A stretch of DNA of 8,790 bases, taken from positions 1 through 8,790 of the IMG/VR virus record IMGVR_UViG_2703718806_000011; one strand, given 5' to 3'. A program made the translations under genes and the position numbers. The notes under the pieces are model-generated. The model searched no databases. It was not told the DNA's origin and saw only the letters and a list, made by a program, of their open reading frames with translations. The number at the start of each line of letters is the position of its first letter. Position 1 is the first letter of the stretch. Below are positions 372-8,790 of this stretch, piece by piece. This stretch comes from a virus. Its lineage: Duplodnaviria; Heunggongvirae; Uroviricota; Caudoviricetes.

Positions 372-2261
372 TCATAGTGAATCGGTACCACCTGATTTGA
401 CCATACCGCGATAATCCAGAGCTGCCACACCTGCATCAATACGGACTTTCCAGGCCACGCCGTCAACGATAAAACCTTCCTGCTGTTCAAGGTAAGGTTC
501 GTCATTACCATCAAGATAAGCCACCTCGATTGTGTCCGTTCCCTGTGCGGAAAGCATGTACCATTGTTTTTCGCTGATATCATCAAGGCGGGGATCGACG
601 ATGATATCAAGTAGCTTGTGATACGGGTTAAAGATCCCGCTGTTTTTATCAGCCCCGAAAGGTGCGGTTGAGTTAATCATCTGCAACGCGCGATCTTCCA
701 GTGCTGCCGGAACTAAAAGGAATTTAGGCGCAATATTCAGCACTTCGCCATTTTTGTCCTTCTGTGTGCGCATCAGGTGACGTGCTGCACTAAGTCCCGG
801 TGTTGTCAGTCCTGCTTCAATCAGGTTGCTGTGTTTTTTGTCAAACAGCGTTATTCCGTCAGAAAGTTTTACGTTGCCTGTAAGCACCAGATTAACCAGA
901 TTTCCCACCGTTCTTGATGCTGCACGGCCCATAGCCATTGGCACCGTTGATAACTGATCAAGGTCATCATTGATTATCGCCTGGCGGGTAATGCTGAAAA
1001 TATTCCCGTAAGTAGCCAGCGCGATGGGTTCACCGCGATCGCTGGTGGTGATGTATTTATATTCTGCCCCTTCCGGCACTTTGTTTAACGTTGAGAAGCC
1101 ATTCATACCAACGCGGCGGGCTTCCCGGAAGTTTGAAAGGGAACCTTTTTTCGTCCACTGGCGGAATGTTTCGCCACTGTGCTCCCAGCCTGCAAGCACT
1201 GATTTTTCAGCGCCACCAGCAAGGATATCGGTAAAATCGCTGCTGCTGTGGGTGAATGCCGCGTTTACTATCTGCGAGCGTGTGCCGTAGCTGCCCGTGC
1301 TTATACCACGATGGGTTAATGATGCCTGTGCCATATCGAAAAGGCTCATCATGGCGTAAGGATTACCGCGTTCGGCCCGTTCGTGACCAAGACGCGCATT
1401 AAGCCCCTGACGCATGGCATCGCCGGTTATATTGCCGTTATCCGTGTACGCGTAGTAAAGATTTGCGGGGGTGGTTTTGTTTGTTGGCGTTGATTCTTTA
1501 CCCATAGCGAGTAAAAGGCGTTCGCGTGCATTCTCAACGCTACATTCTGAATCCGCAAGACAACTTATAGCCAGGTCGTTATATCTTCCGTTGAAGGTGC
1601 CAAACAATTCACGGATTCCGTTAAGTCGTTCCTGTTCGCCACTGCCAGTTTTCTGGCTGATCATGCTTTTAATTTTTTCCGGCATATTTGAAAAATCTCC
1701 GATTCGTTTTGATTCAATTCGGGCCATTGCTGTAATCGCGGGTATAACCTCATCTGCGAAGCCGTTAGCCTTACACTCATTGCCATCCATCCAGGTTTCC
1801 GCCTCCATCATGGAGGTGATCTCCTGTTTGCTCCTGCCCGTTCTTCCGGCATAGGTTTCTGCCATCGTGTCGCCCAGCTTGTCCATCAGATCAGCAAAGC
1901 GGCGAACGTCGCCCGACACTCCGGCAGTAACACCACGGGGGGCATGTATCATCATCATCGCGTTTTCAGGCATAACGATGTGATCTCCACACATGGCAAT
2001 AAACGACGCCATAGAAGCCGCCATGCCTTCAATGTGTACGATTTTTTTTGCCGGATGATTTTTCAGGGCGTTATAGATAGCCAGCCCTTCAAAGATGTCG
2101 CCACCAGGTGAATGAATGCTCAGATGGATTTCAGACGCATTACCACACGCGTTGATCTCGTCAGTAAGTGCCGATGCTTTTACACCGTACCCGCCGATCT
2201 CGTCATAAATGCGCACATAGACAACATCTGCCATAGCCTTAATGGAAAACCATGTTTTCAT
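372..2261 (-). CDS. Prohead serine protease (ClpP family) fused to HK97-fold major capsid protein, 629 aa
   Basis: N-terminal ~170 aa aligns with ClpP around the catalytic residues: IHSPGGD, GMAASMASFIA (compare ClpP GQAASMGAFLL, catalytic Ser) and MMIHAPRG (compare ClpP VMIHQPLGG, catalytic His). The C-terminal ~400 aa has the length and composition of an HK97-family capsid protein. RBS TAGGAG 8 nt upstream of the ATG at 2261. Confidence 0.85.
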   Translation of the reverse strand: MKTWFSIKAMADVVYVRIYDEIGGYGVKASALTDEINACGNASEIHLSIHSPGGDIFEGLAIYNALKNHPAKKIVHIEGMAASMASFIAMCGDHIVMPENAMMMIHAPRGVTAGVSGDVRRFADLMDKLGDTMAETYAGRTGRSKQEITSMMEAETWMDGNECKANGFADEVIPAITAMARIESKRIGDFSNMPEKIKSMISQKTGSGEQERLNGIRELFGTFNGRYNDLAISCLADSECSVENARERLLLAMGKESTPTNKTTPANLYYAYTDNGNITGDAMRQGLNARLGHERAERGNPYAMMSLFDMAQASLTHRGISTGSYGTRSQIVNAAFTHSSSDFTDILAGGAEKSVLAGWEHSGETFRQWTKKGSLSNFREARRVGMNGFSTLNKVPEGAEYKYITTSDRGEPIALATYGNIFSITRQAIINDDLDQLSTVPMAMGRAASRTVGNLVNLVLTGNVKLSDGITLFDKKHSNLIEAGLTTPGLSAARHLMRTQKDKNGEVLNIAPKFLLVPAALEDRALQMINSTAPFGADKNSGIFNPYHKLLDIIVDPRLDDISEKQWYMLSAQGTDTIEVAYLDGNDEPYLEQQEGFIVDGVAWKVRIDAGVAALDYRGMVKSGGTDSL

Positions 2262-2919: not shown

Positions 2920-3177
2920 TTAAAACGGTATGTTATCCCCGTACGGATCATCGTTACCCGCCACGCTCACCAGTTCGCCTTTGTGGTGTTTTGCCAGTGC
3001 GTCGGCCTGTCTGCCAAACGCCAGGACGGATAACCACATCGTCGCCGTTCCGTCATCGGCCTGGCTGCACGGCAGGGGGATAGCCATACCCGCCATCGCC
3101 ATTTGTGTACCCTTGCTGGTGGTCTTTAACTGTGGGTCAGCCACCAGCCGCCCGTAAGCGGCTATCTGTGCTGTCAT
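2920..3177 (-). CDS. Truncated SSB-like OB-fold protein, 85 aa, ending in an SSB-type acidic C-terminal tip (...DDPYGDNIPF)
   Basis: The N-terminal part resembles the start of E. coli SSB (IAAYGRLVADPQLK vs VILVGNLGQDPEVR; WLSVLAFGRQADALAKHHKGELVSV vs [26 protein letters not shown]), and the last residues DNIPF match the SSB tip DDDIPF. Start overlaps the upstream gene stop (ATGA). Confidence 0.6.
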   Translation of the reverse strand: MTAQIAAYGRLVADPQLKTTSKGTQMAMAGMAIPLPCSQADDGTATMWLSVLAFGRQADALAKHHKGELVSVAGNDDPYGDNIPF

Positions 3178-3443
3178 GATTCCACCTCTCCGGTTTTAAT
3201 GTTGATGGTTGTTACCTGTTCCGCTTCGGCAATCTCCCGTTCTGTCAGCGTGGCAAAGTTTGCCGCCGCTGTGGTCATGAATGCGCTTATCAGTTCGGGA
3301 TGTTCCTTCGCGTATCCTTCCCCCGCGTGGCGGTCTATTACCCTGATTGCTACCTTTAAGGCGTGCTCTGTCATGTCTAACGCTTTATATTTTGGCTCTG
3401 TTCTGTCTCTGCGCATTTTGGTTATCTCCTCACTCATGCTCAC
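3174..3443 (-). CDS. Hypothetical protein, 89 aa (GTG start at 3443; alternative ATG at 3437)
   Basis: Plausible composition; GAGG lies 7 nt upstream of the GTG, inside an ori iteron; coupled to the downstream SSB-like gene by a 4-nt overlap. Confidence 0.5.
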   Translation of the reverse strand: MSMSEEITKMRRDRTEPKYKALDMTEHALKVAIRVIDRHAGEGYAKEHPELISAFMTTAAANFATLTEREIAEAEQVTTINIKTGEVES

Positions 3444-3630
3444 TTTTGCGCCTCACTTTTTAAAGCGTCTCGCTTCGTCTCACTTGATATTTTTGATGTT
3501 TTTATGTGCATGTTTCATAAGGATTTTTTACTCCTCACTTTTTGGGGTATATATACGTTGAAAAGTGAGGAGTTCAGGGGGTTTTTCGTGCAATTCCTCA
3601 TTGTCCTCACTTTTGCGCCTCACTTTTTAC
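3429..3630. repeat. Putative origin of replication: iterons of consensus CCTCACTTTT around an AT-rich core
   Basis: The 23-bp unit CTCACTTTTGCGCCTCACTTTTT occurs at 3439-3461 and 3606-3628. A perfect 12-bp inverted repeat CTCCTCACTTTT (3531-3542) / AAAAGTGAGGAG (3561-3572) flanks a TATATATA spacer. Partial copies at 3429-3435, 3477-3486 and 3596-3603. AT-rich stretch 3481-3530. Lies immediately 3' of the replication gene. Confidence 0.55.
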
Positions 3631-5036
3631 AGAGGGCCTACATCATCACCGTCGATATAAATAACCCCGTCTTTTTCCAGCTTGCGTAGCCAGCGGCTGA
3701 AGTTTTTCATTTCGTACCCCAGCTTTTTCATATCGTCACGTAACAGCGGGATCGTGCACTTGTCGCCGTGCTGTGTGCGTGACCGGATACATCCCCATAG
3801 CGCAGCATGATTCTCCGTCTTGTTGCCAGCCTCTTCGATGCGCTCCAGTTCAACGGGAGGACGCGGCTTATCCACCACCACCAGCGACGTGATTAACTCC
3901 CCGTCAGCGTCGGTAAAAAGCTCCACCACCCGCAAATCATAGGCAGCCTCTTTGAGTTCCTCCGCGTCCTTCATTTTGGTGCATGAGATAACCAGCGCTT
4001 CGCTTCCTGCGTCCTCCCTGCGTATCCGGTATTCAGCGTCCAGTGATGCACGAAATGCACTGGAACCACGCGCCCCCTTTGTTTCATCCTTGCCGGAATG
4101 GTGAACCACCAGCACCGTAGCCCCTGTGCGCCGTTTAAGCTCGTCACAACCACGGATAAATGCCCCCATGTCGCGGGAGTCATTTTCATCATTGCCGCCA
4201 AAGCAACGCGCCAGCGTGTCCAGAATAATCATGCGAACAGGTTTACCCGTTTCCCTCTCCACCTGACTGGCAGCAATAACCAGTTCATCAACATCAAGCG
4301 GGACAGCCGGAAAGATGGGACGGTTTACCAGATACAGATTTTTCACCTGCTCACCGTGCACAACCTCCCAGGCTTTTACACGACGCGGAACGCCGATACC
4401 GCCTTCACCAACCACATAGAGAACAGCGCCATGCGCCACCCTGCGGCCTCCCCACTGGCGGCCCGTGGAAACGTGACACGCCCACGATCCGGCAAGGAAT
4501 GATTTATAGGAACCGCTCGCCCCGTATATGCTGCAAAGCGACGATGCCGGAATAATCCCCTTTACCACGTAATCAAGCTGTGTGTCGTATCCGGTAGATC
4601 CAACGCTCATCGGTAGCTTGGTTTTTCGCTGGGGGATTTTTTTCATGACCAGGCTTTCCCCGCGTTCCCATGCCTCCCTAAGCCGTGGAAGCTGGTCGCT
4701 CCATTCCTCCAGCAATTCGAAATTTTCAGAAAGTAGCCGCGCCTCCTGGACTCCGGCGATCGCCAGTTTCGTGGCGATGGTTAACAGCTGCGGCTCTTCA
4801 ATATTTCCGGCGCGTATCACCGTCGCCCTGTATCGCCCATCATCAACAATCTGGAGGTTATCCAGTTCGCTTAACTGATAACGCCCCAGATAAACGGGAG
4901 GGACTGGATCGCCTGCTTTTTTGGCCTGTGCAATGATGTAATGCTCTGCGAATGAGTGAGCATCAATACCCGCAAAAATAATCGCATCGGTGTATTTATC
5001 TTTCGGTAATCGTTTTACGTTCGGTGCCAGTTTCAT
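3627..5036 (-). CDS. Replication protein with a RepA/DnaB-like (RecA-fold) ATPase domain, 469 aa; primase/helicase-type satellite replication initiator
   Basis: P-loop-like IYGASGSYKSF, Walker B-like RMIILD, and HHSGKD, as in RepA-like helicase domains (from memory, unverified). AGGGG lies 6 nt upstream of the ATG at 5036. Start overlaps the upstream gene stop (ATGA). Confidence 0.8.
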   Translation of the reverse strand: MKLAPNVKRLPKDKYTDAIIFAGIDAHSFAEHYIIAQAKKAGDPVPPVYLGRYQLSELDNLQIVDDGRYRATVIRAGNIEEPQLLTIATKLAIAGVQEARLLSENFELLEEWSDQLPRLREAWERGESLVMKKIPQRKTKLPMSVGSTGYDTQLDYVVKGIIPASSLCSIYGASGSYKSFLAGSWACHVSTGRQWGGRRVAHGAVLYVVGEGGIGVPRRVKAWEVVHGEQVKNLYLVNRPIFPAVPLDVDELVIAASQVERETGKPVRMIILDTLARCFGGNDENDSRDMGAFIRGCDELKRRTGATVLVVHHSGKDETKGARGSSAFRASLDAEYRIRREDAGSEALVISCTKMKDAEELKEAAYDLRVVELFTDADGELITSLVVVDKPRPPVELERIEEAGNKTENHAALWGCIRSRTQHGDKCTIPLLRDDMKKLGYEMKNFSRWLRKLEKDGVIYIDGDDVGPL

Positions 5037-5332
5037 TTTTTACCCCTGAATCCGTTAATCATGGTTTTCAGCTTCTGGATGTTTGCCCGTGCCCTGGCGT
5101 TGCTGGTGGGCACGTTATGCGGCGCGGTCTGTACCAGAGAAAAATCACGCCGGAACTGATAAACAGGCATCACGCAATCATATTCGTAACCTTCACGGCG
5201 GTAAGTTACGCACCGTCCCGCCACGCCCTTAATCATTACCGTGCCGCCGTACTGGTCGCGGTAAATATCACCGCGCGTAAATTTAGGGTGAGTGTTGCCA
5301 CTGGCAGTTAAGCCAGAATATTTAAGTTTCAT
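5033..5332 (-). CDS. Hypothetical protein, 99 aa; resembles small conserved proteins found beside replication genes in P4-like prophages
   Basis: ORF-track protein with GDIYRDQYGGTVMIKGVAGRCVTYRREGYEYDCV, probably beta-rich. GGAG upstream of the ATG at 5332. Last gene of the small-gene operon before rep. Confidence 0.6.
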   Translation of the reverse strand: MKLKYSGLTASGNTHPKFTRGDIYRDQYGGTVMIKGVAGRCVTYRREGYEYDCVMPVYQFRRDFSLVQTAPHNVPTSNARARANIQKLKTMINGFRGKK

Positions 5333-7007: not shown

Positions 7008-7196
7008 TTAGTGAACTGCCTTGCAGCTATCCTTCCAGGCCAAAACCTCAGATAAAGACCAGCCAACAGAACGCCCGCCAAGTTTACGACGTGATGGGAA
7101 TTGTCCGGCCTTTTCCAGGCGGTAGCGGCATGAGCGGCTAAGGCCTGTTAGCTTTTCGCATTCTTTTTCACGTATAAACCGATCAGTGCTTAACAC
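7008..7196 (-). CDS. alpA: AlpA-family (excisionase-like, MerR-type) phage transcriptional regulator, 62 aa, GTG start
   Basis: ...EKLTGLSRSCRYRLEKAGQFPSRRKLGGRSVGWSLSEVLAWK matches the AlpA helix-turn-helix pattern. AAGGGGG lies about 4 nt upstream of the GTG at 7196. Confidence 0.8.
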   Translation of the reverse strand: MLSTDRFIREKECEKLTGLSRSCRYRLEKAGQFPSRRKLGGRSVGWSLSEVLAWKDSCKAVH

Positions 7197-7560: not shown

Positions 7561-8790
7561 TTATTTTATTCTGGTTACTGGTAGCGTGGTTACGTTTTCA
7601 TGTGCTCCCGCCAGTATCCCTAACCGCTCCGTCCACATATCCAGCGCATCACGTTTCGCATCGAGATAACGGGAGTGGTTATAGACTCGTTGCATCCCTG
7701 GCATCTGATGACCTGTAAGCTGCTCCACGACGTGAGGATCCACGCCCAAATCATTCAGCATCGTTGTAAAGGTGCGCCGGATGTCATGCAATGACCATTG
7801 AGGGTGTTTTAGCCTCCTGTGCGCTAATCTGCCGTACTGCGATACGCTGGCCTCCTGTTTCACTTCCCCCAGTAATAAGCCCGTGTGCCTGTTCTGGTCC
7901 ACCAGCCGCGTGACGAACGGCAGGATCGCTTCCGGTATGGGCCGGAATATTGCAACCTTCGTTTTGCTGTGCTCCTTCGGAACGGTCCATAGCATTTCGG
8001 TAAAATCCCACTCGCTGATCTCCGATAACCTCAGTTCTACCGTCCTGGCTCCGAAGACAATCAGGAGGCGGATTAACGCGACGTAGTAAGGAGAAAATAT
8101 TTTTTTATCCAGCGCCTGCAATAACTCGCCCAGTTCTTTGGTGCTTAAGACACGTTCGCTTATATCCGGTTTTTTCCCAACGTCCGCCACGTTCAGATCG
8201 TCCAGAACGTTGCTGATTGCATAGCGCCGCCTACGGCAGAATTTAAGCGCCTGTTTGCATGTCTGTAGCAAGAATCCGGCAGTAACAGGTGTTCGCTTTG
8301 CCACCTGATCAAAACAGGCCAGCCAGTGCCGTAGCTCGCATTTATCCAGCGGCATAGCACCAATTTTGATGATTATGTTTTTATTGATCCGGCTTTTCAG
8401 TGATTCGTAATCTGTGCGCTTTTCCTTTGCGTACGACTCAAGCCAGTAGGTGAGCGCATCGCCAACCGTTGCAGGCTTTAACGCTTCCTGCATGGTGTAA
8501 TTCAGTTCATAGCGTGGATTTTTCCCCTCAGCCAGCCATGCGCGACACTGTGCGGCTTTTTCCCTGGCTGCTTTCAGGCTCAGATCGGGATAATTTCCCA
8601 GCTTAACGCGTTCAGGTTGTGTCCCTCTTCCCGTTCCGGCCCTGTATGTGAAATACCAGGTTAAAAGGCCGCTGGTTGAATGCCTGACGCTCAGGTTTCC
8701 ACCGTCATTAAGAAAGGCTGTTTTTTGGGCGGGTGTGCCGTTGATTTTCCTTAGCTGTGTGTCACTCAGTTTGTTAAGTGCTCTGCTCAT
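7561..8790 (-). CDS. int: P4-type tyrosine integrase (site-specific recombinase), 409 aa
   Basis: N-terminal arm-binding-type region (LSDTQLRKINGTPAQKTAFLNDGGNLSV...), and C-terminal catalytic motifs HDIRRT (HxxR) and GHQ...VYNHSRY (catalytic Tyr). The ATG is the last three bases of the window (8788-8790). Confidence 0.9.
   Translation of the reverse strand: MSRALNKLSDTQLRKINGTPAQKTAFLNDGGNLSVRHSTSGLLTWYFTYRAGTGRGTQPERVKLGNYPDLSLKAAREKAAQCRAWLAEGKNPRYELNYTMQEALKPATVGDALTYWLESYAKEKRTDYESLKSRINKNIIIKIGAMPLDKCELRHWLACFDQVAKRTPVTAGFLLQTCKQALKFCRRRRYAISNVLDDLNVADVGKKPDISERVLSTKELGELLQALDKKIFSPYYVALIRLLIVFGARTVELRLSEISEWDFTEMLWTVPKEHSKTKVAIFRPIPEAILPFVTRLVDQNRHTGLLLGEVKQEASVSQYGRLAHRRLKHPQWSLHDIRRTFTTMLNDLGVDPHVVEQLTGHQMPGMQRVYNHSRYLDAKRDALDMWTERLGILAGAHENVTTLPVTRIK

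Follow-up and report, generated by a model that had tools for sequence, protein, structure and literature searches.

The window, that is the whole stretch of DNA analysed here (8,790 nucleotides), carries all of its long ORFs on the minus strand. The genes that concern the present work and the gap behind rep are, in the order in which they are read:

7561-8790, minus strand: int, tyrosine integrase
7008-7196, minus strand: AlpA/excisionase-like ORF
5033-5332, minus strand: DUF4222 protein
3627-5036, minus strand: rep, 469 aa (Pfam AAA_25, E=2.8e-43)
3426-3629, read here in the direction of rep: array region, the ~200-bp gap from the rep stop codon to the next gene
3174-3425, minus strand: small gene orf83 (phrog_1231, ~80-83 aa), start at ATA 3425 or ATG 3416
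2920-3177, minus strand: SSB
372-2261, minus strand: ClpP-protease/major-capsid fusion

The backbone int, alpA-like, icd-like, DUF4222, rep, orf83, ssb and capsid follows the gene order of the E. coli PICIs, and the stop codon of orf83 overlaps the start of ssb at 3174-3177. A copy of 99.8% identity resides in E. coli ST130 as an ~10-kb island between yhjB and yhjD (its 469-aa protein is named 'helicase RepA family protein' in RefSeq), and of 5426 complete E. coli genomes 875-1137 contain related copies, at most four in any one genome. The traits of Gram-negative PICIs are present, namely an integrase, an AlpA-type regulator, one direction of transcription, a rep-ori module, small size, a capsid gene and a specific insertion site. 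The element is very probably a Gram-negative PICI-type phage satellite of ~10 kb, integrated in the chromosome of E. coli.

The islands of E. coli O157:H7 and Nissle 1917 have the same backbone (int, alpA, icd-like, DUF4222, rep, orf83, ssb, capsid or terS). In the Nissle 1917 island, which we take to be like the CFT073 island, the rep slot is occupied by a P4-family primase and the gap that follows contains unrelated repeats (CTGTCTACC/GGTAGAYA) in a similar arrangement. No terS was found in the window. A Stx-phage-like non-coding stretch lies at 147-348; the lambda cosN sequence GGGCGGCGACCT was absent from the window at up to two mismatches, thus this stretch is not confirmed as a lambda-type cos.

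The ~200-bp gap 3' of rep contains ~11 copies of (A)AAAGTGAGG. Read in the direction of rep, the core of this iteron is GTGAGG, preceded in most copies by an A-tract. The array is made up of two direct sets of copies, a dyad whose perfect 13-bp arms enclose GTATATATAC, and an AT-rich tract (45 bp, 78% AT):

3627-3629, minus strand: rep stop codon TAA, overlapped by the first iteron
3604-3629, minus strand: iteron set A, two direct AAAAGTGAGG copies (3618-3627 and 3605-3614) that abut and overlap the rep stop TAA
3594-3603, minus strand: degenerate third copy of set A, CAATGAGGAA, read from the sequence
3530-3573, no strand assigned: dyad element, formed by an inverted iteron (3561-3573, plus strand) and a direct iteron (3530-3542)
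3486-3530, no strand assigned: AT-rich tract, 45 bp, 78% AT, between the two iteron sets
3426-3486, minus strand: iteron set B, five direct copies (read from the sequence and found by repeat and motif searches), namely CAAGTGAGAC at 3477-3486, GAAGCGAGAC at 3467-3476, AAAAGTGAGG at 3451-3460, AAAAGTGAGC at 3438-3447 and ATGAGTGAGGAG at 3426-3437

From the stop codon onward, two to three direct copies are followed by the dyad, the 45-bp AT tract and the five direct copies; set A and the dyad (3530-3629) lie on one side of the tract and set B (3426-3486) on the other. The core is 6 bp long and the repeats are spaced by 10-13 bp. According to the repeat finder the arms of the dyad, ACTCCTCACTTTT (3530-3542) and AAAAGTGAGGAGT (3561-3573), are perfect over 13 bp, and the 18-bp spacer between them contains the palindrome GTATATATAC at 3547-3556. 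The inverted iteron, which reads CCTCACTTTT within 3561-3573, is the single inverted copy in the array, the copies that flank the 45-bp AT tract all pointing one way. A 20-nt spacer separates it from the degenerate CAATGAGGAA copy, a position that reads GTGGGG or GTGAGA in aligned relatives. The repeat finder also returned a longer unit in two copies (3439-3465 and 3606-3632; 27 nt, 96% identity, 24 nt identical). The repeat unit, the inverted repeat, the partial copies and the AT-rich stretch that the earlier note had described are all present in the sequence. A consensus scan of 3400-3650 found neither a DnaA box nor an IHF site, no promoter or terminator was predicted inside the gap (scan of 3100-3900), and an Rfam scan of the whole window returned no family above threshold and gave no evidence of a structured RNA in the gap.

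The repeats are genuine, and their number far exceeds chance expectation. At one mismatch or fewer AAAGTGAGG has six matches in the 8.8-kb window, all inside 3438-3626. The exact core GTGAG occurs eight times in the 204 bp of the array and at most twice in any segment of 204 bp elsewhere (more than ~300 bp away), and in 20,000 simulations of the region under a first-order Markov model the count never reached eight. The array, of ~200 bp, is the only cluster of the motif within the 8.8-kb window.

Rep, the product of the gene directly upstream of the array, consists of an N-terminal domain (residues 1-135), a RecA-type AAA_25/RepA helicase core and a C-terminal winged helix. The two segments of its coding sequence that matter for the array are:

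3630-3815, minus strand: coding sequence of the winged-helix domain (residues 408-469; AF2 and Foldseek)
3672-3710, minus strand: coding sequence of the predicted recognition helix (helix 3, residues 443-455, KNFSRWLRKLEKD; AF2 model)

Rep shows a weak sequence match to RSF1010 RepA (PDB code: 1g8y), and a fold search with the full-length model retrieved RadA/Rad51 and T7 gp4, the similarity extending over the RecA-like core only. Pfam and PDB sequence searches with the C-terminal and N-terminal domains gave nothing significant. Apart from the N- and C-terminal domains and parts of the core, the full-length AF2 model is of low quality (mean pLDDT 64). The C-terminal domain is modelled as helix-helix-helix-strand-strand, with a pLDDT of 86-91 in the full model and of 89.7 when modelled alone, and Foldseek matched it to MarR, DtxR, LexA, Fur, ArsR and histone H1 at TM 0.6-0.69, with E-values of just 0.04-0.1; the winged helix is identified by fold comparison only, using this confident predicted model. 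In longer Rep relatives, from Xenorhabdus and Serratia, Zn-ribbon and Toprim primase domains precede the same core. The 469-aa Rep has no primase domain and therefore probably relies on host DnaG. Its core is AAA_25 and RecA-like, not the AAA+ superfamily-3, D5/P4-type core of the Rep family of the SaPIs and CFT073; Rep would, by analogy, work like a SaPI Rep from outside the SaPI Rep protein family.

Scanning with a Rep alignment and keeping one genome per species yielded 80 loci across Enterobacterales. In virtually all of these ~80 loci the 260 bp after the rep stop contain a repeated 6-8-mer, and the common arrangement is two direct copies at the stop, an inverted and direct pair, an AT-rich tract and 2-5 direct copies. 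The position of set A at the rep stop is kept in all clades (in some relatives the first iteron constitutes the last rep codons), and the AT-rich tract is conserved in composition at the matching position across loci. The repeat core differs by clade, being GTGAGG, GTGGGG(G), GTGCGGC or GTGGGGGC. A dyad of the form CNCAC-N24/26-GTGNG with a TATATA centre was found in 69 of 85 loci and in every iteron class, with a span from outer core edge to outer core edge of 34 bp, or 36 bp in the E. coli PICIs. Among eight E. coli variants all iteron copies change in concert (GTGAGG, GTGAGT, GTGGGG or GTGGGC), and the TGTATATA centre and the flanking genes are conserved. Evidence for diversification through incompatibility of co-resident islands is mixed. 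As to co-residence itself, Xenorhabdus genomes contain 2-3 copies of one iteron class, and Pantoea dispersa S68 contains two different classes.

The helicase core is near-identical among the Rep variants of E. coli; most of their differences fall in helix 3 (443-455) and in the N-terminal domain, of which there are two alleles. The sequences of helix 3 found in E. coli and the iteron cores that accompany them are:

KNFSRW and KNFRRW: iteron core GTGAGG
KNMRRW: iteron core GTGAGT/GTGAGG
KHFRRW: iteron core GTGGGG
KHLKRW: iteron core GTGGGC

When iteron classes were defined from repeats called de novo at all loci, K-N-[F/M] corresponded to GTGAG, K-H/K-[F/L] to GTGGG and K-S-F to GTGCGG, and the partition of the residue after the conserved Lys against the iteron core was clean across loci. 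Part of this co-variation could stem from shared ancestry, as the helix codons adjoin the iterons and are co-inherited with them. The switch from Asn to His is seen both within E. coli and between deep clades and is therefore not one single inherited event. Comparison of the window with an E. coli relative, L083, gave a nucleotide identity of 98-100% through rep to ~3780, 63-75% in 3720-3421 and 91% in the next gene. The divergent stretch comprises the repeats and, within rep, the codons of helix 3 and the wing, and the confinement of the sharp drop in identity to 3720-3421 implies the exchange of one cassette made up of the recognition helix and the iterons. An iteron-binding role of the 83-aa protein encoded downstream was also considered and rejected, this protein being conserved (~87% at the nucleotide level) beside the unrelated iterons of Nissle 1917.

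The earlier note had placed the start of the next gene at 3443 and had an iteron supply its Shine-Dalgarno sequence. The GTG at 3443 is merely the mechanical start of the longest ORF and is probably wrong as a gene start: the homologues start at the equivalent of 3425, which is also where the match to the PHROG profile begins, and the start in the window is at 3425 or 3416. Position 3425 is ATG in relatives and ATA in the window and in ST130 (the RefSeq start on the identical sequence), and in the window a new ATG lies three codons downstream, at 3416. In relatives a frame-breaking 1-nt indel is found upstream of 3425, which speaks against 3437 or 3443 serving as a start or lying in coding sequence. 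The overlap of iteron and Shine-Dalgarno sequence is real in the E. coli PICI backbone: the last set B copy, ATGAGTGAGGAG, contains the Shine-Dalgarno-like GAGGAG (3426-3431), 9 nt before ATG 3416, and among the variants of the E. coli PICIs a distance of 0-10 nt separates the last iterons from the start codon, the G-rich 3' ends of these iterons (GAGGAG, GGGGAG, GAGAGG) being placed ~9 nt upstream of that codon. This part of the proposal does not hold in other iteron classes. At loci of the GTGCGGC class a separate AAGGAG-type Shine-Dalgarno sequence, 15-25 nt behind the last iteron, precedes the next gene, in Pectobacterium ~90 nt lie between the array and the next gene, and in Xenorhabdus the array is intact and no same-strand gene follows for ~1 kb. 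The Nissle island, too, keeps the same downstream gene, there with a separate Shine-Dalgarno sequence and unrelated iterons. The further suggestion that initiator binding could couple replication to translation finds no support: Rep is expected to bind DNA, and a DNA-bound initiator cannot mask a site on the mRNA. At most, any coupling by Rep would act through transcription, e.g. by hindering read-through.

These observations bear directly on whether the array is mainly a device of gene expression, by which Rep or another island protein would control orf83, ssb and capsid, either by blocking read-through or via the Shine-Dalgarno sequence in the last iteron. The gap is devoid of any predicted promoter- or terminator-like site, and the downstream genes are probably read through the array, which together with the closeness of the last iterons to the start codon in E. 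coli would suit such a device. We nevertheless consider it unlikely, given the classes in which the downstream gene is distant, absent or equipped with its own ribosome-binding site and the indel upstream of 3425; furthermore, a winged helix that binds double-stranded DNA has no action on mRNA, and both the AT tract and the TATATA dyad would be left unexplained. Terminase-binding regions often consist of short repeats and related islands carry terS, hence a packaging signal with cosB- or pac-like sites for a small terminase subunit comes to mind. The repeats, however, follow the Rep helix and not the late module, as the window shares its protease-capsid fusion with L083 but not its iterons, and shares its iterons with the O157 island but not the capsid/terS modules. 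With no terS in the window and with the Stx-phage-like 147-348 as a better candidate for a packaging site than the array, we regard this explanation as extremely improbable.

A locus for copy-number control or incompatibility (handcuffing), or a partition site, with replication starting elsewhere in the island, would have precedents, since the arrays of iteron plasmids and the crr of P4 can act in control apart from the start. It is very unlikely here: the motif forms a single cluster in the 8.8-kb window, this cluster holds both the AT-rich tract and a meltable dyad, and the homologous position in EcCICFT073 is needed for plasmid maintenance (PMC6092414). A DnaA-dependent origin of the plasmid type is rejected because of the lack of a DnaA box or IHF site in 3400-3650.

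The sequence evidence taken together makes it very likely that 3426-3629 is the vegetative replication origin of the PICI-type satellite, bound by Rep. This reading follows from the PICI backbone of the island, the layout conserved in ~80 loci, the co-variation of helix and iteron, and the match to published PICI and SaPI origins, and these four lines agree with what the earlier note had proposed, an iteron-type origin placed as in SaPIs and PICIs. As in those origins, the array lies 3' of the initiator gene, consists of 6-12 short iterons and has two sets that flank an AT-rich region; a helicase with a C-terminal winged helix matched to the iterons is likewise found, in this case by computation. 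A further trait of such origins is that iterons on the two flanks of the melting region face opposite ways; in the array the one inverted copy pairs with the next direct copy around TATATA, and orientation is uniform across the 45-bp AT tract.

We propose that Rep, made from the gene directly upstream, would recognise the iterons via helix 3 of its winged-helix domain, and that several Rep molecules would bind on both sides of the meltable DNA and form hexameric rings of the RecA type (RepA/superfamily-4-like). There are two candidate melting sites, the dyad with its TATATA centre, which is a candidate for nucleation as well, and the 45-bp AT tract, a candidate DNA-unwinding element. Rep may then melt the duplex at one or both of them and may load itself without a separate loader. 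Priming and copying would fall to host DnaG and Pol III, with the island SSB assisting. Binding, melting, self-loading and the use of a host primase are inferred from SaPI Rep and from the Pri-Rep of EcCICFT073; the helicase superfamily differs from that of the Reps of SaPIs and CFT073 (superfamily 3), hence this transfer of mechanism is by analogy.

Going further, the co-variation and the dyad allow two linked readings, which we put forward tentatively and hold to be somewhat more doubtful than probable: a near one-residue/one-base code, and a self-loading double hexamer at the dyad. In this code position 4 of the iteron would be recognised as A by Asn446, as G by His or Lys and as C by Ser, and the code would move between islands as a compact cassette of recognition helix and origin. 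At the dyad with the TATATA centre the RecA-type (superfamily-4-like) helicase would load itself as a head-to-head double hexamer. If true, the code would define groups of replication specificity among co-resident satellites, and the double hexamer would be a bacterial analogue of the origins of SV40 T-antigen and papillomavirus E1, independent of the superfamily-3 Reps of the SaPIs.

That an iteron origin lies 3' of rep as in SaPIs and PICIs restates a defining feature of PICIs, described for those of E. coli in 2018 and for SaPIs before that; the present Rep allele and its iterons may already be drawn in the figures of the 2018 study (PMC6092414). What is added here is a Rep allele that joins a RecA-type core to a winged helix, a strictly spaced TATATA dyad, and one helix residue that tracks one base of the iteron. 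The location of the origin makes it possible to predict which Rep can amplify which satellites, lends itself to minimal rep-ori vectors and makes the replication of the island trackable after helper-phage infection. The natural variants KNF/GTGAGG, KHF/GTGGGG and KSF/GTGCGG constitute a test set for the reading of a hexanucleotide by a winged helix. PICIs thus fill one rep-ori slot with helicases of unrelated superfamilies and keep the design of the origin; the accepted picture of PICI replication is unchanged.

Among known systems the closest in organisation are the Gram-negative PICIs, whose origin lies directly 3' of rep and has two iteron sets flanking an AT-rich region; the rep-ori of EcCICFT073 maintains a plasmid only if neither rep nor ori is missing, and the same study refers to four alleles of Pri-Rep and has figures with the iteron maps of several E. 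coli PICIs (Fillol-Salom et al. 2018, PMC6092414). The present element resembles EcCICFT073 in the island backbone, in the origin 3' of rep, in the two iteron sets around an AT region and in the orf83-ssb pair downstream. In contrast, the Rep of EcCICFT073 and Nissle is a P4-family primase with a superfamily-3 helicase, while the present one is a 469-aa RepA/AAA_25 protein of RecA type with no primase domain, and their iterons are CTGTCTACC/GGTAGAYA instead of GTGAGG.

The Reps of SaPIs are self-loading helicases, and their C-terminal winged helix recognises the 6-12 iterons, each of five or six nucleotides, that directly follow rep. The centre of the SaPI origin is AT-rich; origin binding and melting by these Reps are independent of ATP, and a loader is not required (Qiao et al. 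2022, PMC9371898). The present system is alike in the C-terminal winged helix, in the 6-12 iterons after rep, in the AT-rich centre, in having at least one opposed pair of iterons and in a specificity matched by the C-terminal domain. It differs in that the SaPI helicase belongs to AAA+ superfamily 3, whereas here a RecA-type AAA_25 protein is found in a Gram-negative host, and in that here only one copy is inverted, within a dyad of fixed spacing and conserved TATATA centre.

The alpha protein of P4 is a satellite primase-helicase whose C-terminal winged-helix domain recognises short repeated octamers, and a repeat region lies just downstream of its gene. P4, however, needs two separated cis regions, ori and crr, in contrast to the one cluster found within the 8.8-kb window, and alpha combines a primase with a superfamily-3 helicase and has iterons unrelated to GTGAGG. 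T7 gp4 and RSF1010 RepA share the RecA-type core with Rep, and the longer Rep relatives with Zn-ribbon and Toprim are built like gp4; neither gp4 nor RSF1010 RepA is known to have a sequence-specific origin-binding domain, and in RSF1010 iteron binding and priming are the tasks of two further proteins, RepC and RepB respectively. The iteron plasmids pSC101, R6K, RK2 and pPS10 (Rep_3/WH1-WH2) are similar in that a winged helix acts on direct repeats beside an AT-rich unwinding element. Their iterons are 17-22 bp long and are accompanied by DnaA boxes and IHF sites, whereas the array described here has a 6-bp core at a spacing of 10-13 bp and neither kind of site, and their initiators, which have no helicase, recruit DnaB, whereas the present Rep is itself a helicase.

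The first iteron, one of the short repeats that make up the candidate Rep-bound origin 3' of rep, is part of the rep coding sequence in several clades, as at the rep 3' ends of the related loci L038 (4042-4053), L047 and L081. The last rep codons are themselves an iteron copy there, reading GTG GGG GAT TAA (VGD*) or AGT GAG GAA TAA, which implies that Rep's own predicted binding site determines the residues at the C terminus of the protein. Some Xenorhabdus genomes harbor two or three elements (L007/L011, L013/L014 and L015/L019/L071) with one iteron class in each genome, whereas the two elements of Pantoea dispersa S68 (L032/L047) belong to different classes. Since same-class elements are thus co-resident in Xenorhabdus, different Rep/iteron specificities are not obviously needed for co-residence.

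The opposite end of Rep is variable.

4632-5036, minus strand: Rep N-terminal domain, residues 1-135

A Pfam search with residues 1-135 gave no match. The AF2 model of this domain shows an alternating strand/helix fold (pLDDT 84-89), and the domain occurs as two alleles of approximately half identity, which assort independently of the remaining protein. In longer Rep relatives, Zn-ribbon and Toprim primase domains are found in its place. The N-terminal domain might derive from a Toprim domain as a degenerate remnant, or might serve as an adaptor for the host primase. P0076, a 563-aa Rep homolog, has a precomputed Pfam match to PF02924 (the lambda head-decoration gpD family) N-terminal to AAA_25; this match may reflect a fusion or an annotation artefact.

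Two small genes 3' of rep differ from their counterparts in related elements.

3416-3425, minus strand: start region of the 83-aa gene
2920-3177, minus strand: SSB gene of the island (85 aa)

Relatives start the 83-aa gene with ATG; the window, E. coli ST130 and OkiPb01685 have ATA at this codon. In the window a new ATG lies three codons 3' of the ATA, at a site occupied by AAA in relatives; the RefSeq annotation still places the start at the ATA. SSB has 85 aa in the window; the ST130 island, otherwise nearly identical, encodes a 140-aa form. The window gene carries a 165-nt in-frame deletion, bounded by two GGTAAC repeats, that takes out the OB fold end and the linker; the C-terminal tip ...DDPYGDNIPF is retained.

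The remaining features concern the virion and, possibly, packaging.

372-2261, minus strand: fusion of a ClpP-type prohead protease with an HK97-like major capsid protein
147-348: non-coding stretch 3' of the capsid gene

The protease-capsid fusion is the only recognizable virion gene of the ~10-kb island, with no portal, terminase or decoration protein among its recognizable genes. Sister islands with the same rep-ori encode a separate capsid protein, a decoration protein and terS instead of the fusion. The lambda cosN sequence was searched for in the window and is absent. The non-coding stretch 147-348 shares 89-91% identity with unannotated DNA of Stx1/Stx2 converting phages (e.g. VT1-Sakai, Stx2_95), and may be a common packaging (cos-like) or helper-recognition sequence.
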